64,000 nt of DNA from positions 562 through 64,561 of the forward strand of contig DATIHN010000016.1 of NCBI GenBank assembly GCA_035480635.1, written 5' to 3'. The notes beneath the pieces are model-generated. The model searched no databases and had not been told where the DNA came from. It was given only the letters and a program-made list of their open reading frames with translations. The DNA is from Candidatus Saccharimonadales bacterium. Its GTDB lineage: Bacteria > Patescibacteriota > Saccharimonadia > UBA4664 > DATIHN01. A program made the position numbers and the translations under genes. Shown in pieces: positions 2,417 through 31,536 of the stretch (position 1 is the stretch's first letter; the number at the start of each line of letters is the position of its first letter).

Positions 2417-4870
2417 TTATTTCTTCAGGGTTGGTTGGCCGAGGGTCAGGCCATCGCCGCGGCGCAGCACGGTCACGGTATCGCCGGGTTTGAATTGGCC
2501 TGCCAGGATGCCATTCGCCAGCGGGTCTTCGATGTAGTCTTGGATAGCTCGTCGCATCGGCCGAGCACCCTGATCAACGTCGTAGCCCTTTTCGATTAAG
2601 TAATCTTTGGCTTGGGGCGTAACTTTGAGGCTAATGCCCTGTTCGCTAACACGTTCGTATAAATCGGCTAATTGGACCGCTAGGATTTTGCGCACATCCG
2701 GCCGGCTCAGGCTCTTGAAAACGATGACTTTATCCAGCCGATTTAAGAATTCTGGCCGGAAAGTCTTTTTGAGATCGCCCATGACCTTTTCGGTCACTTG
2801 GTTGTGAGCTTCCTCCAGCTCTTTTTGCTCACCAACGGTTTGGGCCTTAAAGCCCAGCACCGCCTCGCGGTAGAGGCTCTCGGCGCCGACGTTACTGGTC
2901 ATAATAATAATGGTGTTGCGGAAGTCCACCCGCCGGCCTTTGGCGTCGGTTAATTGACCGTCTTCAAGAACCTGCAACAGCATATTGAAGACATCGGGGT
3001 GGGCCTTTTCGATTTCATCGAGCAGCACCAGACTGTAGGGCTTCCGGCGAACGGTTTCGGTAAGCTGGCCACCTTCGTCGTAGCCAACATAACCAGCCGG
3101 AGCTCCGACCAAGCGGGAGGTGTTGTGGCGTTCCATGAATTCGCTCATGTCGATTTTGACGATGGCATCGTCGCTTTGGAACATTTCGCTTGCTAGCACC
3201 CGCGCCAGTTCGGTTTTACCCACGCCAGTGGGCCCAAGGAACATAAATGAGCCGATCGGGCGTTTAGCATCACTTATACCGGTACGGCTGCGGCGGATTG
3301 ATTTGGCCACTTCTTTTACGGCTTCGTCTTGACCAATGACGCGCTTGCGTAGGGTATCTTCGAGTTTAACTAAGTTTTCGGTATCAGTTTTAACTAGACG
3401 AGTCACGGGTACGCCGGTGATCAGGCTAATAACTTGAGCGATGTCCTCGGCGGTAATCTGAATGGTGTCTTCGTTTTTTTGGCTGGAGAGCTTTTGCTCG
3501 ATGATGCTGACCTTGGTTTTGAGCCGAGCGGCCAGTTCAAAATCTTGGCCGTCAACCGCTTCATCCATATCGGCCTTGGCTTCGACCAATTGCTTTTGTA
3601 AACCCCGGGTGTTTTTATTGGTACTGCCGCGCTTAATGCGAGCCAGACTTGCAGCCTCATCGACCAGATCAATGGCCTTATCCGGCAAGAAGCGATCAGC
3701 CACATAGCGCTTGGCTAATTTAGCGGCTTGCTCAATGGCCTCATCGGTGATCTCAACTCGGTGATGCTCTTCGTAACGCTGGCGCAAGCCGTGCAAGACG
3801 GCAATGGTTTCTTCAACTGTCGTTTCGGGCACAATGACGGGTTGGAAGCGCCGCTCCAAAGCCGCGTCTTTTTCAATGTGTTTGCGATATTCATCCAGAG
3901 TGGTGGCACCGATGGTTTGGATTTCGCCGCGAGATAATGAGGGCTTTAAGATGTTGGCGGCGTCAATAGCACCTTCAGCGGCGCCGGCGCCGACCACGGT
4001 GTGGAGCTCATCGATGAACAATATCACTTCAGGTGTGGCCTTGGCCTCGTCTAAAATCTTCTTCAATCGCTCTTCGAACTCGCCGCGGTATTTGGTACCG
4101 GCAATGACGCTGGCTAGATCGAGCATGACGATGCGTTTGTTTAGCAGCATCTCGGGCACTTCGTCGGAAATAATGCGCTGAGCCAAACCCTCGACAATGG
4201 CGGTTTTGCCAACGCCTGGTTCGCCAATTAAAACCGGGTTATTTTTGGTCCGGCGGTTCAAGATTGAGACCACTCGGCCAATTTCATTACTGCGACCAAC
4301 TACGGGATCAAGCTTGCCCTCACTAGCCTTAGCCGTTAGATCAATCCCAAAATGATCCAGGGCCGGAGTCTTCGACTTAGTGCGCTTAGGGCTGGTCGTT
4401 TTGGCCGATTCATCGGAGTAATAGTACTGCTGATTGCTTAAATAATTTTCTAGTTCGGCCCGAACAGTGGCCGGATCAACTTGGATTTCTTTTAATAAGG
4501 AATTAGCTCGAGCACTCTTTTGGCTCAGGATGGCGTAAAGAATATGCTCGGTGCCAGAATAGGGTTGGCCAAATTCTTGGGCAATTCGCAGCGAAATGGT
4601 CAGCGTATCGCGGGCCGTCTCACTGAGTCCCTTGCGATTGGCCCGGGCCAGAGCAGCACTAGAACTACCAGACAACCATAATTCAGCCTTTTCCCAGGTC
4701 ACACCAGCTTCAATCAGAATCTTAGCCCCGATCGAGCCCTCTTGGCGCAACACGCCCAGCAGGATATGTTCGGTGCCAATGTAGCCCGAACCCATGGTTC
4801 TAGCGATCGAATCGGCATTCTCCAGGCTTTTTTTGGCGTTCTCGGTTAATCTTTCAAATGCATCGTGCAT
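2417..4870 (-). CDS. clpC: ATP-dependent Clp protease ATP-binding subunit ClpC (817 aa).
   Basis: Two Clp_N repeats, two AAA+ modules ([16 protein letters not shown]), and a UVR-like linker. Confidence 0.9.
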
Positions 4871-24944: not shown

Positions 24945-24973
24945 TTGACTTAACAGAGCTATTATGGTAGTCT
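24945..24973 (+). promoter_or_regulatory. Putative promoter: TTGACT, 17 nt spacer, TAGTCT.
   Basis: Consensus -35 hexamer; the -10 fits TAnnnT. It sits ahead of the AGGAGA RBS of the island's first gene. Confidence 0.35.
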
Positions 24974-25009
24974 TGGGCGGTTCAGGACCTCGCCTATTTA
25001 AGGAGAGAC

Positions 25010-25288
25010 GTGAAGCACCGAAAAGGATCATCAAAAATCAAGTACGATCACCATATGATCTCGGGCCTTCGCGACTTTCTCGAAAGCATCGAAGACTGGC
25101 CGGAGATCAAATCGATCATCCCTGGTCGCATCAAACGCACCGGCATACATACAGCCCTGAAGCTCAAGGTCCAATACCCCACCGACACCGGTTTGAAGTG
25201 CCAGGCTCAGTCTGGGGGAGCAATCCAGGAGGTCTTCGTTGTCACATCCGTACCAGACGTGCTTGCTCGTAAGCTCAACAACCTATAG
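25010..25288 (+). CDS. Small hypothetical protein (92 aa), partner of the NYN gene.
   Basis: AGGAGA RBS and GTG start. The stop lies 12 nt before the NYN ORF. Confidence 0.45.
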   Translation: MKHRKGSSKIKYDHHMISGLRDFLESIEDWPEIKSIIPGRIKRTGIHTALKLKVQYPTDTGLKCQAQSGGAIQEVFVVTSVPDVLARKLNNL

Positions 25289-25300
25289 GGGTGAAGCAAC

Positions 25301-25828
25301 GTGGAGATGCCGAAGTTCGCATTAGTTGCCATCGATGGCGATAACATCGACCGCACGCTCTTTGGGGAGCTCAAGAGTCAACTTGCCCCAGGGGTCTTGG
25401 TGGAAGTGATAGCCGAACTGCTCCCCAATCACACCACCTGGAGCCTGGGCTGCTACACGGTTCCGCAAACCGACCGAGCTATGTCTCTCCAGCAGCATTA
25501 TCTGCGCGAGTTGGTGGCAGCCGGTATCGCTATTCGGCGATGGCGGCGGGGAGCCATTCGCGGCCGTACCGTCGGCTACCCCGACAGCTGGCTGGTGGAG
25601 CAGGTGGTGACCATTTGGGATCGATTCGACACGCTGGTATTAGTGACGGCCGACCGGGACTACGTCCCCTTGTTATCTAATGCCCAAGCCATGGGCAAAG
25701 ACACCGTCGTGCTTTCACCTCAACCGGTGGCTTGGCCCAGCTTCGTGCGAGTACATGAACTCGACTGGCTCGACACTCAACACCCAGGTCTTCTACGCTC
25801 ACTTATTGCCGCCCCGGCCTGGATATAA
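25301..25828 (+). CDS. NYN-domain (LabA-like, PIN-related) RNase.
   Basis: ALVAIDGDNIDR and LVLVTADRDYVPLL...GKDTVVL match the NYN acidic motifs. Confidence 0.7.
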   Translation: MEMPKFALVAIDGDNIDRTLFGELKSQLAPGVLVEVIAELLPNHTTWSLGCYTVPQTDRAMSLQQHYLRELVAAGIAIRRWRRGAIRGRTVGYPDSWLVEQVVTIWDRFDTLVLVTADRDYVPLLSNAQAMGKDTVVLSPQPVAWPSFVRVHELDWLDTQHPGLLRSLIAAPAWI

Positions 25829-25829
25829 G

Positions 25830-25870
25830 CCCCCTAGAGTCTATTTGGATTCTAGGGGGTTAACATTTTG
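25830..25870 (+). terminator. Rho-independent terminator.
   Basis: CCCCCTAGA ... TCTAGGGGG 9-bp stem followed by TTAACATTTTG. Confidence 0.6.
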
Positions 25871-25879
25871 ATAAAAGCA

Positions 25880-25908
25880 TTGACGTAGTTCAAAAAAAAT
25901 ACTAGAAT
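25880..25908 (+). promoter_or_regulatory. Strong sigma70 promoter: TTGACG, 17 nt spacer, TAGAAT.
   Basis: Near-consensus hexamers with 17-nt spacing, about 70 nt before the GAGGAGGG RBS and ATG 25980. Confidence 0.6.
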
Positions 25909-25979
25909 AACCTATCTTGCTCAAATTTGGGTAAGAGCTCTTTGATTAGAGCGCTCTACATCCCGAGGAGGGATCTGGT

Positions 25980-26726
25980 ATGGCAGGTACAGCAAACTCC
26001 ACCGACCAACCGACGTGGGTAACCATCGACATCGTATGTGTCGGTGACGAGCCCATGCTCTGTAACCCGATGAGTCGCGACCAGCTCGTGGCCATCGCCG
26101 AGAAGCGTCCAGTTGCCTGGCCCGCTGACCGTCCTGTGATCGAGCAGGCCGACGTTAAGGCCGAGCTGATGAGGGACACCGACGGCCACTACGGCTTCCC
26201 GCGGCAGTGGCTGCAGGGGGCCTTGAGGGAAGCTGGTCGCTCAGTACCCACCGGTAAGGCTGCTCGGCAGATGATCAGCACCGCTACCAGCACGCGCTTG
26301 CGCACCCTGGTGCGGATCGATCCAGTCTGCCTGAGCTTCAACGCCGACGGTGAGCGGTTCATCCGCTTCAGCAGTCACTCCGAGTACGAACGCGATGTCC
26401 GCAAGGGCGTCGGGGGTAACGCTGCCAAGCCGGTGGCGGTAGCGATCGTGCGGCCGCTCTTCCGTAACTGGGCCTTCCGCGTCCGCATCCAGGCATCCAC
26501 CAGCATCGACACCTCGCGCATTCGTGAGCTATTCGAGATCGCTGGTGCCAGCCAGGGTTTGGGCGACTTCCGCCCCGGCAAGGGTGGCGAGTTCGGCTGC
26601 TTCCAAGTGGCCTCGTTGGTCAAATACGACGATCCAGCCGAGGTACCGGAGTTCGTACTGGCCACCAACGCCATGACGGCGGCGGACAACGGCCAGGGCA
26701 AGGTTCACGAACTCGCCAGCACTTAG
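25980..26726 (+). CDS. Hypothetical protein (248 aa) with a glycine-rich loop GLGDFRPGKGGEFG.
   Basis: Monocistronic unit with its own promoter and terminator. The G-rich loop is loosely reminiscent of RAMP/Cas6 loops; this is unverified. Confidence 0.6.
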   Translation: MAGTANSTDQPTWVTIDIVCVGDEPMLCNPMSRDQLVAIAEKRPVAWPADRPVIEQADVKAELMRDTDGHYGFPRQWLQGALREAGRSVPTGKAARQMISTATSTRLRTLVRIDPVCLSFNADGERFIRFSSHSEYERDVRKGVGGNAAKPVAVAIVRPLFRNWAFRVRIQASTSIDTSRIRELFEIAGASQGLGDFRPGKGGEFGCFQVASLVKYDDPAEVPEFVLATNAMTAADNGQGKVHELAST

Positions 26727-26743
26727 CCGGCCAACCGACTTGT

Positions 26744-26779
26744 GGGCCGAGGCTTCGTGCCTCGGCCCACTTTCTTTTG
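26744..26779 (+). terminator. Rho-independent terminator.
   Basis: GGGCCGAGGC TTCGT GCCTCGGCCC followed by ACTTTCTTTTG. Confidence 0.65.
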
Positions 26780-26856
26780 CCCTCATACATGTGGCAAAAG
26801 ACAAATTTTGGTCTGCTGAGCCATCTCGTTGTGCATCTTAAGTTCCATTAATTCTG

Positions 26857-27761
26857 GAGGGAGAACTCAAGTTCTCGCAAATAGTCTGGTCGAGTACAGT
26901 GGGGTCGTGTAGGTAAAGGCTTGCAGAACTACGGTACCGGGTAGGGACTGATGTTCCTACCATACCTAATGTTGGGCTAGGCTTGGTTCCGCTGGGTTGG
27001 TCAGCGTTTAGTGTGGTTATCTACCGGGCAGCAGCCGTCATGCTACTGCCAAACCTGCCCTACGGTGTGGTCCGGCCTGCTTCGTTGTGATGCCACCCAG
27101 TTAGGCATGGGGTAGCGGTCGCCAGACCGCTACTATAACTCCGGTAGGGTCCGCCATTGCAGTGTCGCCCACGCAGTTGTATGGCCCGCATGACTAGGGT
27201 TTGGTGGACTTTGGGGCGGCAGCCGACAGGTTGCCGCCATTACCTTATGTAAGGTTTACTGGGTTAGGGTTCGGCTCCATAGGCCTAGCTATTCTGCTGC
27301 TCGGGGCGGGAGAACCAAGATTCTCCCGCCAACCCTATTGTTTGGTACTGCCAGCTCACGTAAAGCATAGCTGCGTAGTCTAAGGCAAGGGGCAGCAGCT
27401 CCGGCTGCTGCCATCAGTCACGGTGACGTTCCGTGGATTAGGCTTTTGCCAGCCATGGCGTTGTCATGCTTGGTACGGGGTGGGAACCACAAAGCTCCCA
27501 CCATGGTTAGTCCACTGTGTGGTTGAGCCTGGTTTGTCGTCGTCGAGCTTGGCACACTTAGGGGCGAGACCGCTTGAACGGTCTCGCTGACACTTGTGGT
27601 AAGGTTGAGATCCCTACAGTAGAGTGCTATCGGCTTAGCTACGGGGTAGTGGCTCCGGCCGCTGCCGACATTGTGGTCGACTAGCGTAGAGTTGATTACT
27701 CTGTTGTGTGTCTCGTTTGAGTTTCCTAAGGGGTGGGGAGGGACTAAAATCCTTCCCCACC
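26857..27761 (+). repeat. Array 1: 11 tandem units of about 85 bp, each starting with a GGGG-initiated GC-rich stem-loop. Sequences diverge but structure is conserved.
   Basis: Hairpin starts at 26857, 26939, 27026, 27109, 27214, 27303, 27389, 27477, 27561, 27643 and 27730, with 82-105 bp spacing. Stems co-vary, with plus-strand G-U wobbles and one C-A mismatch in unit 3. There is no ORF. Confidence 0.7.
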
Positions 27762-27870
27762 AACAACTTTCATCGTTCTTATGGTGCTATCGTTTCACAT
27801 ACGATGCCACCTCGGCCTGATGACAGTCCGGACACCTTGACACTCGAATAGATAGAAAGGAGGGAACCGC

Positions 27871-29694
27871 ATGAGCGATTACAGTGACGCCTTGTCGCAA
27901 GAGAACCTCATGACCTGCTTCCCCCGTCAGTACCGTCGCCCCAACAACTCTCAACTGTCTGCCTTTGCCGCCATCGCCGAACACGGTAGTGAAACACTCG
28001 AGGCACCGACTGGCACCGGCAAGACCGCCGTTGGCTGGTCCTACCTCGAGGCCTTGGAACGAGCTGGCGCTACCTCACTAGTGGCTATTGCTCCCAACAA
28101 GACTCACGTAAACCAGTGGAAAGAGCTCCACCCCGATATGACGGTCGCCTATGGCCGCAGTGAGTACGACTGCCTTTACTACGACGAGGAGGACGAACCC
28201 TTTAAGGCCGACGAGATTCCTTGTTTGACCTTAACCAATTGTCCCCACCGCGTTGACGTAGAGACTGGCCAGACCGTGGAAGAGGGCGCTATGCCATGCC
28301 CCTACTACCAGGCCAAGTTCGAGGCCAGACGCTCGCGCAAACTGGTTTGCACCATGAGCTTCTACCTCTTCAATAACGTCTTTCGTGGGGACTTTGAGCC
28401 CCCCGATGGGCTGGTGATTGACGAGGCCGACCAGATTGCCAAAGTCGTTCGCGGCGCGCTCAGCTACGAAATCACCGACTTCCAACTGCGGCGCAGTGTG
28501 ATGTTGCTGGAGAGCATCGGGGCCGACGACGAGGCCAAATCGGTCAAGCAATTCCTGCGCAATATGGTCGCTATCCTGAAGCGCAAGCCCCAGGGGCAGC
28601 CAACCTTGCTAACGGACGGCGAGATTGTTCGCCTGCTGGATGCGATTGGTCAAATTGACGCCGAGGCTGTTCGGAAGCGTATTGCACGTGCCATCAAGAC
28701 TGGCGAAATCGATCCTTACGAGGACCGAGAGGTGCTAACCAGGCTAGAGCGGCTGACCCAAAACCTGGGGCGCTATTTGCGCTCTCTGGGGTATGCTCTG
28801 CCGACCGGTGAATACCACGCCCTCAACTTGGTGACCTACGCCTACAGCGACAACGAGGTAACCGACGAGAACCGGGTCAACTATAAGCTCATCATCAAGA
28901 GCTACCACGTAGCCGGTCTAGTGCGCAAGCTGCTCAGCCCAAACACCCTGGCCATGTCGGCGACCATTGGCGACAACACCGTCTTTGGCTACGAAACCGG
29001 CATTCAACTGCCATTCGTGAGCCTGCCGGGTACGTTCCCAGCAGAAAACGCCCTGGTACTGCTGCCTACAGATACGCCCAACTTGGCTCAGAAGGAGCGC
29101 AGCCGTAACCAACCCACCAGAGTGCTACGCCACATTGCCAGAGCCTGTGGCGACTTTGCCAAAAAGGATATCCGCAGCCTAGTGATTGTGGTTAGTAACC
29201 GCGAACGCGACAAGTTCCTTTGGCTCTGCCAAGAAGCTGAGGAAGATGTCGACGTAGTCAGCTACGGCGATGGCCTGACCCCCCGTCAGGCTCTGGCGGC
29301 CTTCAGGGAAGGTCAAGGGACGGTGCTCTTGGGCACGGTGGCCAACTACGGCTCGGGCGTTGACTTGCCAGAGGAGATTGCTCCAGTCACGTTTGTGCTA
29401 CGACCGGGCTACCCCAACCCCAACGACCCGTTCGCTCAGTTCGAGCGGCGACGCTTTGGCAACGGCTCTTACTGGAAGGTCTGGAACTGGCGAGTGATGA
29501 TTGAAGCTCTGCAGGTGCGCGGGCGCAATATCCGCAGTGCCAGTGATCGTGGTGCCACCATCTTCATCTCGCAACAGTTCCGGCGTTTCCTGTTTGCATC
29601 ACTGCCGGAATGGCTCAAGGACAGTTACGACGGCAGCCTGACATTCGAGGAGGCCTGCGGGCGCGTTCTCGAGCTGATGGAAGCTCAGTCGTAA
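27871..29694 (+). CDS. Rad3/XPD/DinG-family SF2 helicase with an Fe-S cluster domain (607 aa).
   Basis: APTGTGKT Walker A, a four-Cys cluster, VIDEAD box, SAT motif, and QVRGRNIRSASDRG motif VI. AAAGGAGGG RBS upstream. Confidence 0.8.
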   Translation: MSDYSDALSQENLMTCFPRQYRRPNNSQLSAFAAIAEHGSETLEAPTGTGKTAVGWSYLEALERAGATSLVAIAPNKTHVNQWKELHPDMTVAYGRSEYDCLYYDEEDEPFKADEIPCLTLTNCPHRVDVETGQTVEEGAMPCPYYQAKFEARRSRKLVCTMSFYLFNNVFRGDFEPPDGLVIDEADQIAKVVRGALSYEITDFQLRRSVMLLESIGADDEAKSVKQFLRNMVAILKRKPQGQPTLLTDGEIVRLLDAIGQIDAEAVRKRIARAIKTGEIDPYEDREVLTRLERLTQNLGRYLRSLGYALPTGEYHALNLVTYAYSDNEVTDENRVNYKLIIKSYHVAGLVRKLLSPNTLAMSATIGDNTVFGYETGIQLPFVSLPGTFPAENALVLLPTDTPNLAQKERSRNQPTRVLRHIARACGDFAKKDIRSLVIVVSNRERDKFLWLCQEAEEDVDVVSYGDGLTPRQALAAFREGQGTVLLGTVANYGSGVDLPEEIAPVTFVLRPGYPNPNDPFAQFERRRFGNGSYWKVWNWRVMIEALQVRGRNIRSASDRGATIFISQQFRRFLFASLPEWLKDSYDGSLTFEEACGRVLELMEAQS

Positions 29695-29757
29695 GGAACA
29701 CATTTACGGTAGAGCCAGGCTAGATACGTTAGTGCAGCGCGAAGCAGGCTAAGTTGT

Positions 29758-30790
29758 CGGTGGAGAGGCCGAGCTATGGGCCTCTCCACAAACTATCTGG
29801 TTCGGTAACGCGGGCTCAACTTTTGTGCCGTCATCTACTGATTGGTGCGGGGCAGCGACTTTGGTCGCTGCCAATCATTAGCTTCGGCTAGGTCAGGCTT
29901 TGCGCGCTGCTATAGGGCGGAGTTTGGTCCTGGTGGGGAGGCGAAACAGTTGGCCTCTCCACAAAACTTTCGTTAAGGTGTGGTATGGTTTGCCAGTTTT
30001 CGGTCTGCCACATCTTGGGTGGAGAAGCCAAACAGCTTCTCCATGAAAATCAGTGGTAGGGTAGCACGAGCCGTTGGACTCAGCCTTATTCTTGGGTATC
30101 GGGTGGAGTACCCAACTCCACCAAAAATTTGCTTAGCTATGCTAAGGTTATCCCCGGTGGCCTACGGTCTGGGACGGAGGCATTAGTGTCTTCGTCAAAC
30201 CTTAGGTATGGTGACCCCCTCTCCGTTGACGTATGCCAAGGCCACGTAGCTTGCGTTTCTGTTGAGCAGCGAATTGGGCGGAAGCAGAAATGCTTCCGCC
30301 ACTATTTCCGTCAGCTCGGGTTGGCTATGATGTCGTTGCGTTGATCTGGGAACGGTCTACTAGACTACGGGGCGGGGTTGTGTAACCCCGTTAAAAATTA
30401 CGGTCTGTTCAGGCTAGGCGAGCCATGCTGACTTTAGACACGGCCGGCTTCGGGGTGGGAGTGACGATGCTTCCACCAGAAATATCGTCAAGTCGAGAGA
30501 TGCACAGTGCTGTTGTTTTGCGTGAAGTACGGCTCGATAGGGTAAAGGGTGGCCGAGCAATCGGCCACTATGACTTGGGTTCGCTACTCTGTAGTAATGT
30601 CGCTTTCAGCATCGCATAGTATTGGGTGGCTGGCTTGCTAGCCACCAGCCCTACGCTAGGATTCAGTCCGGCTTTGTGGGCCTCGGTAGCTCACGGCATT
30701 CCACAGCCCGCTCGAGTCCGTTGCATTGTTCAATGGTTCAGTTGGGTAAGCGGCGGGGAGGCAGTTAAACTGCTTCCCCGCCTTTTCAAT
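29758..30790 (+). repeat. Array 2: about 11 tandem units of the same GGGG-hairpin family. The last hairpin doubles as a terminator.
   Basis: Hairpins at 29761, 29851, 29933, 30020, 30102, 30277, 30373, 30452, 30547, 30624 and 30752. G-U wobbles are plus-strand only. Hairpin K is followed by TTTTC. Confidence 0.65.
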
Positions 30791-30870
30791 TAATAAGCCA
30801 ATTTCGTTATTGGTCTGGGACTTTTCGATAACTTTAAGTTAAGATATAATTTAAGCCGTTTTGCAAGCAA

Positions 30871-30944
30871 GGCACCATGGCGGAGTGGTTACGCAGAGGT
30901 CTGCAAAACCTTTTACACCGGTTCGATTCCGGTTGGTGCCTCCA
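30871..30944 (+). tRNA. tRNA-Cys (GCA).
   Basis: Cloverleaf with anticodon loop CTGCAAA, T-loop GGTTCGATTCC, and an encoded CCA. Confidence 0.85.
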
Positions 30945-31076
30945 GGAATTTGGTACAGACATTTGTCTGTGCTGGATTCCTACGAAGCCGGAAGCGAAAG
31001 CGTAGGTTCGGTGGACGTAGGCGCGCAGGCAAGGGACAATAAATTGGTTCTTGCCGAGCACCGAGGGAGGTGGCTG

Positions 31077-31095
31077 CCAAGCCACATTCCGGTTG
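31077..31095 (+). repeat. 19-nt duplicate of the tRNA-Cys 3' end (ATTCCGGTTGGTGCCTCCA).
   Basis: Exact copy of 30926..30944, 133 bp downstream. It resembles an att-site footprint. Confidence 0.7.
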
Positions 31096-31105
31096 GTGCC
31101 TCCAA

Positions 31106-31192
31106 GTAAAACCAGGGCGAGTGGCGGAATTGGTATACGCGGCGGACTTAAAATCCGCTGCCAGCAATGGCTTGAGAGTTCGAGTCTCTCCT
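31106..31192 (+). tRNA. tRNA-Leu (TAA).
   Basis: Anticodon loop CTTAAAA, long variable arm, and CCA. Confidence 0.8.
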
Positions 31193-31240
31193 CGCCCACC
31201 AAAGATAGTCGGGCATTCGAATTTTTGCTAGAATGTGCCG

Positions 31241-31316
31241 ATACAACGTGGCGCCTTAGCTCAGTTGGTAGAGCAGTGGCCTGAAGAGCCTCGTGTCGTT
31301 GGTTCGAATCCAACAG
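31241..31316 (+). tRNA. tRNA-Phe (GAA).
   Basis: GGCGCCTTAGCTCAGTTGGTAGAGC ... CTGAAGA anticodon loop ... GGTTCGAATCC ... CCA. Confidence 0.85.
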
Positions 31317-31460
31317 GCGCCACCAGATTTTAAGAAAATCTGATTTTATTAGGCGAAATCAAACCAAGCCAAGCTGTTTGATGAGCCAAAGGAGAAACCG
31401 AATTGTAAGCCGAAAGTAAATTGGTGCCAATTTACGGAGGCTGGAGGTCGGTTTTGACGC

Positions 31461-31536
31461 GCGGGTGTAGCTCAGCTGATAGAGCGCTTCCTTGCCAAGG
31501 AAGAGGCCCCGGGTTTGAGTCCCGGTACCCGCACCA
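31461..31536 (+). tRNA. tRNA-Gly (GCC).
   Basis: GCGGGTGTAGCTCAG ... TTGCCAA anticodon loop ... GGGTTTGAGTCCC ... CCA. Confidence 0.85.

Follow-up and report, generated by a model that had tools for sequence, protein, structure and literature searches.

A probable chromosomal VIPR system with an XPD-like helicase and two arrays of candidate guide RNAs in a Candidatus Saccharimonadales genome

Introduction

What kind of system is encoded where a helicase gene lies between two arrays of hairpins, downstream of a small gene whose product matches no Pfam family? The present study addresses this question for a segment at 25.0-30.8 kb of a 64-kb stretch of DNA from a metagenome-assembled genome (MAG) of Candidatus Saccharimonadales, a member of the candidate phyla radiation (CPR). 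The whole 64-kb stretch is called the window, and coordinates are window positions unless a related locus or contig (L followed by a number) is named. An earlier annotation from the letters of the DNA, here called the sequence-only reading, described a GC-rich island with an orphan G-loop protein and proposed that its helicase, NYN RNase and structured arrays beside a tRNA cluster look like an RNA-guided or RNA-processing accessory system that matches no recognised system. We conclude that the locus very probably encodes a helicase-associated form of VIPR (Viral Interference Programmable Repeat) on the chromosome. The system consists of one Cas7-like Vipr, an XPD-type Fe-S helicase and 22 candidate guide RNAs, without a CRISPR array. 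The sequence-only reading was correct in its central idea: the helicase, the G-loop protein and the arrays are placed in one RNA-guided system, although the NYN protein is not part of its core.

VIPR was described in two preprints of April-June 2026 (bioRxiv 10.64898/2026.04.26.720920 and 10.64898/2026.04.26.720927). In the first, its core is a ~20-kDa ancestral RAMP (Vipr), one accessory gene (vap) and guide RNAs termed vrRNAs. The vrRNAs are ~100 nt in length, consist of 9-16 YNNGG pentamers with a structured 3' tail, and lie in intergenic regions up- and downstream of the genes; degenerate pentamer variants (YNNNG and NNNGG) are on record. One Vipr protomer binds each pentamer, G-G-Y is flipped out, NN pairs with DNA, and every third target base is skipped (10.64898/2026.04.26.720920). 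The companion preprint reports vrRNAs of up to 30 repeats (10.64898/2026.04.26.720927). Most of the reported VIPRs are viral or proviral and 25% are chromosomal; those characterised, from Escherichia phage SUSP1 and a Pseudomonas fulva prophage, belong to type II (10.64898/2026.04.26.720920). Small-RNA sequencing covers types II, III and V and, as far as the available text of the two preprints goes, neither tests a helicase-type VIPR experimentally. The kind of system was already described in 2026, and the present locus is an additional chromosomal VIPR from CPR bacteria, of a helicase type that is experimentally uncharacterised.

Results

Vipr protein

The segment encodes four plus-strand proteins of 92, 175, 248 and 607 amino acids (aa), two of which form the protein part of the system:

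25980-26726, plus strand: vipr, predicted 248-aa Cas7-like RAMP with a single RRM and the G-loop GLGDFRPGKGGEFG (profile, hhalign, AF2/Foldseek)
27871-29694, plus strand: vap, predicted 607-aa XPD/Rad3-type superfamily 2 Fe-S helicase (Pfam, PADLOC, PHROG and PDB profiles)

A Pfam search of the 248-aa protein gave no match. A profile built from 116 family members matched the "SUSP1 Vipr protein" (PDB 36pp_D, E = 5e-11, 189 of 201 profile positions), and 36pp was the sole solved structure matched by this profile. When the family was compared with SUSP1 Vipr by hhalign, the probability was 97.2% (E = 3.7e-11). The 248-aa protein also matched phrog_4652 (E = 1.7e-11). The Vipr family overall comprises 7,153 cluster representatives at E <= 1e-3.

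According to the companion preprint, the GGY-binding residues of SUSP1 Vipr are H17, R138, D177, W178 and R179 (10.64898/2026.04.26.720927). These residues align to N29, R158, D196, F197 and R198 of the 248-aa protein, respectively. R158 and R198 are invariant among the 116 homologs, and N29, D196 and F197 are at least 90% conserved. Both exchanges at these sites, H to N and W to F, are conservative.

The AlphaFold2 (AF2) model of the protein had a pLDDT of 88.6 and a pTM of 0.85. Its best 50 Foldseek matches in the PDB were RAMP subunits of CRISPR effector complexes, mostly of the Cas7 type. Csm3, Cmr4, type VII Cas7 and Cas7-11 were the leading matches, with E-values down to 2e-6, a probability of 1.0 and TM-scores of 0.4-0.55; identity to the Cas7-type matches was 10-16%. 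The model and these matches point to a minimal RAMP fold with a single RRM core, a thumb and a glycine-rich loop, features shared with the Cas7 backbone subunits named above. The sequence-only reading had stated that no Cas7 is encoded here, which was incorrect at the fold level because the 248-aa protein appears to be a Cas7-like RAMP. On the basis of the profile match and the model, we assign it to the Vipr family as a RAMP in which the GGY-binding residues are kept.

Hairpin arrays and the pentamer code

As had been described, largely ORF-free hairpin arrays lie on both sides of the helicase gene. The stretches 26727-27870 and 29695-30870 contain no open reading frames (ORFs) of >=60 aa beyond a few short, overlapping ones. 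A hairpin scan identified 10 GG-initiated hairpins in the upstream gap and 12 in the downstream gap, GC-rich and usually followed by A. Measured from start to start, they are 82-104 nt apart in the upstream gap and 71-127 nt apart in the downstream gap (median ~86). Hairpins with stems of >=8 bp numbered 21 in the 2.0 kb of arrays, against ~2 per array in shuffled sequences and 1.0 per kb elsewhere in the window. The RNA folding z-scores of the two arrays were -7.6 and -6.7 relative to dinucleotide shuffles. The array signal is far beyond chance. No two of the 22 hairpins have the same sequence, and covariation is seen in their basal pairs; pair 3, for example, is T-A in eight units, C-G in nine and G-C in three. 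In the hairpin tail, the structure is conserved and the sequence is not. A T-run follows only 2 of the 22 hairpins.

Tandem Repeats Finder (TRF) detected no CRISPR-like repeats over 24-32 kb, and the arrays are invisible to it. A generic repeat finder also failed to see the arrays, and its repeat families were weak similarities between hairpins. In Rfam, tRNAs were the only matches at gathering thresholds, and relaxing the cut-off to E <= 1 added nothing meaningful; no Rfam family corresponds to the arrays, and no ribozymes, in particular no hammerhead, were found between the units at this cut-off.

The earlier statement that there are no conserved repeats is correct at the 86-nt scale and fails inside the units, every one of which holds a strict 5-nt Y-N-N-G-S repeat. 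Each ~60-nt "spacer" between hairpins is composed of 9-20 in-phase pentamers of this consensus. When 54 units of the window, L001 and L003 (the latter two being its closest relatives) were aligned on the hairpin start, a 5-nt periodicity extended across at least 12 pentamers, in register with the hairpin. Position 1 was a pyrimidine in 89% and G in 3%, positions 2 and 3 were unconstrained, position 4 was G in 49%, and position 5 was G or C in 89% and A in 3%. In the window alone, the periodicity gave a chi-square of 344 (p = 3e-66). Furthermore, the 2,136 nt of arrays held 65 positions at which nine consecutive pentamers scored >=12 with a position weight matrix (PWM), compared with four on the plus strand outside them (61.9 kb) and two on the whole minus strand. 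A strict shuffle-derived PWM threshold retained only three tracts, and comparing the arrays with the remaining window sequence was more informative. Fourier analysis of whole arrays gave no signal at 5 nt because the phase resets at each unit; alignment on the hairpins recovered the periodicity.

In each unit, a short A-rich leader precedes 9-20 Y-N-N-G-S pentamers, which are followed by a GG-initiated hairpin. Both arrays open with a pentamer tract and close with a hairpin, and nothing periodic is present 3' of the U10 hairpin. Therefore, the unit most likely runs from the tract to a hairpin tail and ends, rather than starts, with the hairpin, the reverse of the order first proposed. The units below, which we regard as vrRNA candidates, were delimited from a pentamer-by-pentamer listing of all 22 with PWM scores ("positive" denotes PWM-positive pentamers):

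26862-26961, plus strand: candidate U1, 15 pentamers, 10 positive; tail 26940-26961
26962-27051, plus strand: candidate U2, 13 pentamers, 12 positive; tail 27028-27051, stem with one mismatch
27052-27134, plus strand: candidate U3, 11 pentamers, 9 positive
27135-27238, plus strand: candidate U4, 16 pentamers, 13 positive
27239-27330, plus strand: candidate U5, 13 pentamers, 11 positive
27331-27412, plus strand: candidate U6, 12 pentamers, 11 positive
27413-27502, plus strand: candidate U7, 13 pentamers, 11 positive
27503-27588, plus strand: candidate U8, 12 pentamers, 11 positive
27589-27666, plus strand: candidate U9, 11 pentamers, 8 positive
27667-27761, plus strand: candidate U10, 13 pentamers, 10 positive; last unit before the helicase 5' untranslated region (UTR)
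29698-29789, plus strand: candidate D1, 12 pentamers, 10 positive; starts 4 nt past the helicase stop codon
29790-29872, plus strand: candidate D2, pentamer listing
29873-29962, plus strand: candidate D3, pentamer listing
29963-30044, plus strand: candidate D4, pentamer listing
30045-30122, plus strand: candidate D5, score 3.3, 7 of 11 pentamers positive; weakest tract, possibly degenerate
30123-30196, plus strand: candidate D6, pentamer listing
30197-30300, plus strand: candidate D7, pentamer listing
30301-30392, plus strand: candidate D8, pentamer listing; guide partly conserved in L001
30393-30477, plus strand: candidate D9, pentamer listing
30478-30569, plus strand: candidate D10, pentamer listing
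30570-30646, plus strand: candidate D11, pentamer listing
30647-30782, plus strand: candidate D12, ~20 pentamers; tail 30752-30782 doubles as array terminator

The tail of U5 with its flanks (GGGGCGGGAGAACCAAGATTCTCCCGCCAAC, 31 nt, 27303-27333) is 100% identical to positions 3864-3894 of L035, from Candidatus Kaiserbacteria. In L035 the match is the last hairpin before the helicase gene. Between L035 and the window, helicase identity is just 44%, and the remaining tails are different. Units may have been recombined or transferred, or the tail may be a preferred ancestral one.

Helicase

The 607-aa protein matched the Pfam families Helicase_C_2, DEAD and DEAD_2, and a Walker A motif and a DEAD/H box are present. 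The cysteines of a four-Cys Fe-S cluster motif (C101, C118, C124 and C143), between Walker A and the DEAH-type box, are invariant in 50 homologs. G48, G50, K51 and E185 are also invariant, and D184 is at least 90% conserved. The four genes, including this Rad3-family helicase, are as the sequence-only reading described them. The best PADLOC model was typeIV_DinG, which matched over the full length (E = 2.4e-39), and the PHROG match was phrog_2488 (E = 1.5e-30). In a profile search of the PDB, the matches were XPD/Rad3 (E = 9e-19), FANCJ, CHL1 and then Escherichia coli DinG, and no CasDinG entry was found at E < 0.001. Since this search returned no CasDinG and the four-Cys motif is kept, the helicase appears to be XPD-like, and analogous rather than orthologous to the helicase of type IV CRISPR. 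We predict that it is an XPD-like Fe-S helicase and that its gene serves as the vap gene.

Conservation in Patescibacteria

The helicase has >250 homologs at 48-79% identity, almost all from MAGs of Patescibacteria (CPR). In eight contexts obtained by exact protein look-up, the surrounding genes differed between loci, and one order recurred: a protein of 205-260 aa without a Pfam match, an ORF-free gap, the helicase and another ORF-free gap. These upstream proteins are homologs of the 248-aa protein. The gaps also contain GG-hairpins; their spacing is ~85 nt among close relatives, whereas a Parcubacteria locus has ~120 nt.

A helicase-alignment scan of one genome per GTDB species yielded 50 orthologous loci and 26 distant XPD/DinG loci, which served as controls. 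The orthologous loci came from Saccharibacteria, Parcubacteria/Paceibacterota, Moran-, Kerfeld-, Taylor- and Doudnabacteria as well as Kaiser-, Wolfe-, Uhr-, Andersen- and Portnoybacteria, and a few from MAGs labelled Gammaproteobacteria or DPANN archaea. A Vipr homolog was encoded <=4 kb from the helicase in 44 of the 50 loci and in none of the 26 controls. Pentamer tracts numbered 558 on the helicase strand and 19 on the other strand of the orthologous loci, versus three and three in the controls, and 43 of the 50 loci had >=2 tracts on the helicase strand. The module of vipr, array, XPD-like Fe-S helicase and array is conserved across Patescibacteria in unrelated housekeeping contexts. The sequence-only reading had named absence of the arrays from orthologous loci as an outcome that would count against it; the arrays are present and conserved. 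It had also suggested a neighborhood search for the 92-, 248- and 607-aa proteins as a trio; among related loci, the vipr-helicase pair recurs and the 92-aa protein is shared by L003 alone.

The guides themselves are not conserved. In relatives whose helicases are 73-79% identical, 21 of the 22 guides have no counterpart. The remaining guide, D8, has one in L001 (~3182-3254; helicase 79% identical), at 87% identity over 38 nt with a 1-nt phase slip. The arrays of the window and L001 are otherwise unalignable, except for the ~110-nt helicase 5' UTR. Since the guides of relatives are nearly all different, the pattern fits fast-evolving targets such as mobile elements and phages.

Some arrays are very long, with at least 34-37 tracts over ~4 kb upstream of the helicase (L025, 860-3700; L030, 175-3710), and both reach the edge of the fetched DNA. 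Two Vipr-family ORFs lie near one helicase gene in L027, L029, L048 and L049. The vipr gene is downstream of the helicase gene in L014, L047, L049 and L057, and on the opposite strand in L025 and L028. As its copy number, side and strand vary between loci, the gene order of helicase-type VIPR is not fixed. Complete vipr-helicase modules were present in MAGs labelled Gammaproteobacteria, Aenigmatarchaeota or Woesearchaeota (L011, L016, L019, L037, L052 and L053). These could be mis-binned CPR contigs or a true presence in DPANN archaea.

Gene neighborhood

The raised GC content reported for this segment is real; the values given (58-62%) were slightly too high, as the GC fraction per kb is 0.54-0.61 over 25-30.8 kb against ~0.50 in the flanks. 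The promoter-like site and the terminators of the sequence-only reading were recovered by scans. Besides the genes and units listed above, the segment contains the following features:

25010-25288, plus strand: 92-aa DUF2103 protein (Pfam PF09876, E = 8e-15)
25301-25828, plus strand: 175-aa NYN-domain protein (Pfam PF01936, E = 1.3e-7)
25880-25908, plus strand: promoter-like site TTGACG-17-TAGAAT, 5' of vipr (consensus scan, 10 of 12 matches, not proof of function)
26742-26770, plus strand: intrinsic terminator-like hairpin 3' of vipr (12-bp stem followed by TTTCTTTT)
30752-30782, plus strand: terminator-like hairpin formed by the D12 tail, followed by TTTT (terminator scan)

PADLOC did not match the 92-aa or 248-aa proteins, and gave a marginal, non-Cas NYN match for the 175-aa protein (E = 0.044); among the four proteins, its only cas matches were to helicase models. 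Among 84 related loci, homologs of DUF2103 and NYN occur near the module only in L003. We therefore dropped both proteins as core components, including the NYN RNase that had been counted as part of the system. The DUF2103 protein is probably a lineage-specific neighbor outside the VIPR system. The NYN protein is also a lineage-specific neighbor, for which a role as an array-processing RNase is possible and unproven. In the window (25010-25828) and L003 (927-1779), the DUF2103 gene is followed directly by the NYN gene just 5' of vipr; the two genes may form a small unit with its own function.

The other neighbors of the module in the window are ligA, HtpX-like and LemA-like genes and tRNAs, and no phage or integrase genes adjoin it there. 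Four tRNA genes lie at 30871-31536, 3' of the downstream array, which ends 90 nt before the cluster. This adjacency, to which the sequence-only reading attached meaning, is incidental: a tRNA is near the locus in 17 of 57 related loci, and tRNA identities are not constant. We do not count it among the features of the system. An exact copy of the final 19 nt of tRNA-Cys (ATTCCGGTTGGTGCCTCCA, 30926-30944) lies 160 nt downstream (31086-31104), just 5' of tRNA-Leu; this repeat looks like the att-type scar of an element that integrated at, or was excised from, a tRNA 3' end. ARAGORN predicted a tRNA-Asp inside the vipr-helicase array of L058 (3370-3446) and, in L017 (2694-2766), a tRNA-Trp immediately 3' of the downstream array. 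tRNA-processing enzymes might help to release array ends, although most loci have no tRNA nearby.

Discussion

Assignment to VIPR

Homology to Vipr, a RAMP fold, GGY-binding residues, a pentamer body, a structured 3' tail and a minimal vipr + vap locus, all features of VIPR, were found together at this locus. As in the type II systems of SUSP1 and P. fulva, a single small RAMP with GGY-binding residues and one vap gene make up a two-gene core, intergenic arrays of ~85-100-nt guides with 9-16 or more YNNGG-type pentamers ahead of a structured 3' tail lie on both sides, and neither a CRISPR array nor Cas1 is present. In contrast to type II, in which vap encodes a small DNA-binding protein, the putative vap product here is an XPD-like Fe-S helicase, and there are 22 guides instead of ~4. 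The combination of vipr, a helicase vap and vrRNA arrays corresponds to the helicase-associated VIPRs mentioned in the preprint text. Types III-V encode nucleases or helicases, and nucleases occur only in types III and V (10.64898/2026.04.26.720920). Because of this distribution, the present system would probably be type IV.

Several points weigh against this assignment. The "type IV" label is our own deduction from the preprint text. The pentamer consensus (YNNGS) is looser than that of SUSP1, as roughly half of the pentamers lack G at position 4, and some tracts contain phase slips. The SUSP1 vrRNA tail is an invariant pseudoknot, whereas the tails here are simple GG-hairpins of variable sequence. 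A viral or proviral setting, which is typical of VIPR without defining it, is absent; unlike the type II systems, the locus is chromosomal, in Patescibacteria, among housekeeping neighbors and without phage genes. Moreover, the transcription, processing and Vipr binding that we propose for the array RNAs are carried over from the work on SUSP1 and P. fulva.

The search for targets adds to these points. The NN pairs of each guide were matched to DNA with a fixed gap; skips of 0-2 and 3 were tried in the window, and large collections were scanned by exact match. With skips of 0-2, no guide matched the 64-kb window above the null of shuffled guides, and a skip of 3 merely recovered the arrays themselves. 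Exact scans of viral contigs with six guide patterns gave no match. An apparent match of U6 in L088, a viral contig, was attributed to chance and rejected, since an AT-rich pattern was matched in a contig of 34% GC, the NN that follows is mismatched and no other guide matches. When metagenomes were scanned with the conserved D8 pattern, two contigs were found. L086 was rejected as chance because only the degenerate 19-base pattern matches. In L085, a 2.1-kb contig with 60% GC, the first 11 NN pairs of D8 match 22/22 at a 1-nt skip, inside a phage replication-initiation gene (phrog_3926, E = 1.5e-21). By our own estimate, made with the collection size known approximately, roughly 0.03-0.06 such matches are expected by chance. 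However, it is codon position 2 and not the wobble position that is skipped, and no second guide matches L085. No guide matched L087, a related 41-kb phage contig. The L085 site is a weak candidate for a target of D8.

Alternative explanations

The alternative with most in its favor is that VIPR has been domesticated, so that Vipr and its guides act as programmable repressors of the cell's own genes or chromosome rather than in defence against mobile elements, and the helicase functions in repair or transcription. The module lies among different housekeeping genes in each lineage, across most Patescibacteria classes, and looks vertical rather than island-like. The lack of adjoining phage and integrase genes, the partial conservation of the D8 guide between species and the identity of the 31-nt U5 tail in a distant lineage also agree with self-regulation. 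However, the window, which covers little of the genome, held no guide match above the null under any of the skip rules. The absence of counterparts for 21 of the 22 guides at 73-79% helicase identity is the pattern expected for arms-race targets rather than conserved host genes, and the one match of note, the weak L085 candidate, is in a phage replication gene. We consider self-regulation rather unlikely.

A second alternative is a degenerate or minimal type IV CRISPR-Cas system, in which Csf4/DinG and one Cas7 accompany a decayed CRISPR array. The PADLOC match of the helicase and the Cas7-like fold of the 248-aa protein are in line with this. However, neither TRF nor the repeat finder found sequence-conserved repeats, the 22 hairpins all differ, and the "spacers" are 5-nt tandem repeats, unlike CRISPR spacers. 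PADLOC detected no Cas5, Cas8, Cas6 or Cas1 among the four proteins, and there is only one RAMP gene, whose product matches Vipr by sequence and Cas7 by fold alone. The helicase profile matches XPD, FANCJ, CHL1 and DinG and its four-Cys Fe-S motif is kept, whereas CasDinG is reported to have just a vestigial Fe-S domain. This explanation is largely refuted, and we regard it as highly improbable. Type IV CRISPR had been suggested earlier as an analogue rather than an identity, and this view holds. The type IV-A system (Csf1-3/5 with CasDinG) resembles a helicase-associated VIPR in combining an RNA-guided RAMP filament and an XPD/DinG-family helicase without a nuclease. It differs in having a conserved-repeat array, Cas5/Cas8/Cas6 and more than one RAMP type, in using contiguous spacers rather than gapped pentamer repeats, and in its helicase; the one described here keeps the four-Cys motif and is closer to XPD in PDB searches.

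It is scarcely credible that the locus comprises an ordinary XPD/DinG repair helicase, an unrelated 248-aa gene and flanks of REP-like or terminator-like hairpins or unrelated structured non-coding RNA: the helicase bears all hallmarks of a repair-type Fe-S enzyme and no Rfam family matches the arrays, but of the 50 orthologous loci, 43-44 link vipr and strand-specific arrays to it, whereas the 26 distant XPD/DinG loci have neither, T-runs follow just two hairpins, and the hairpins are in register with the pentamer tracts. Given the pentamer code and the Vipr homology, we also dropped tRNA-like units, REP/BIME, integron attC, toxIN-like repeats, and retron or OMEGA RNAs.

Proposed mechanism

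For a helicase-associated VIPR system, we propose that the arrays are transcribed, possibly as a single array-helicase-array precursor; a single long precursor is proposed because internal promoters or ribozymes were not found. The precursor would be cut into ~85-nt vrRNAs. One Vipr protomer may then bind each pentamer, with G-G-Y flipped out and the NN dinucleotides presented. A filament of 10-15 Vipr protomers would read double-stranded DNA by a gapped "NNx" code (1-nt skip), and the bound filament may block transcription by forming an R-loop triplex. If it behaves like CasDinG of type IV-A CRISPR, the 5'-3' XPD-like helicase may be recruited to the bound target, where it would strip or unwind DNA and extend interference. 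Since neither type IV-A nor this system has a nuclease, interference is probably achieved by binding and helicase action, not by cutting.

Two further comparisons place this scheme among known guide systems. In class 1 effectors, the thumb breaks pairing at every sixth position (10.64898/2026.04.26.720920). Unlike these Cas7 backbones, a Vipr filament would, judging from the SUSP1 structures, use one protomer per 5 nt and present two of five bases. Among the non-CRISPR systems with short-guide arrays beside a small effector gene is TIGR-Tas, which has tandem interspaced guide RNA arrays. In that system, a Nop-domain protein and two contiguous spacer halves are used without a 5-nt repeat code; the present system has the pentamer code instead and lacks a Nop domain.

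Significance

The present locus and its ~50 orthologs suggest that helicase-associated VIPR is a standard chromosomal fixture of the ultra-small, symbiotic Patescibacteria. Its guide arrays are unusually large, with 22 guides here and at least 34-37 in some relatives. The system is a compact one of three parts, a 27-kDa RAMP, ~85-nt guides and a 607-aa helicase, and may be suited to studies of helicase action on the VIPR R-loop triplex. A strand-specific Y-N-N-G-S pentamer tract followed by a GG-hairpin provides a simple detector for such systems, and the locus offers a concrete comparison for the origin of type IV CRISPR. The locus also illustrates that systems of this sort can be spotted by reading the DNA letters alone.

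We also speculate, while considering the combined claim quite doubtful, that helicase-type VIPR is an ancient, largely vertical immune or regulatory organ of Patescibacteria, with a Cas1-independent means of guide renewal, and a precursor of type IV CRISPR. If this is true, arrays of 20-40 guides turn over far faster than the VIPR proteins. New gapped guides would then arise by, for example, templated re-coding of the NN positions or recombination between units with common hairpin tails. Similarly, the pairing of Vipr with an XPD-like helicase would be the evolutionary precursor of the RAMP and DinG logic in type IV CRISPR. The hundreds of guides in these arrays may serve as a natural data set on what Patescibacteria defend against or regulate.

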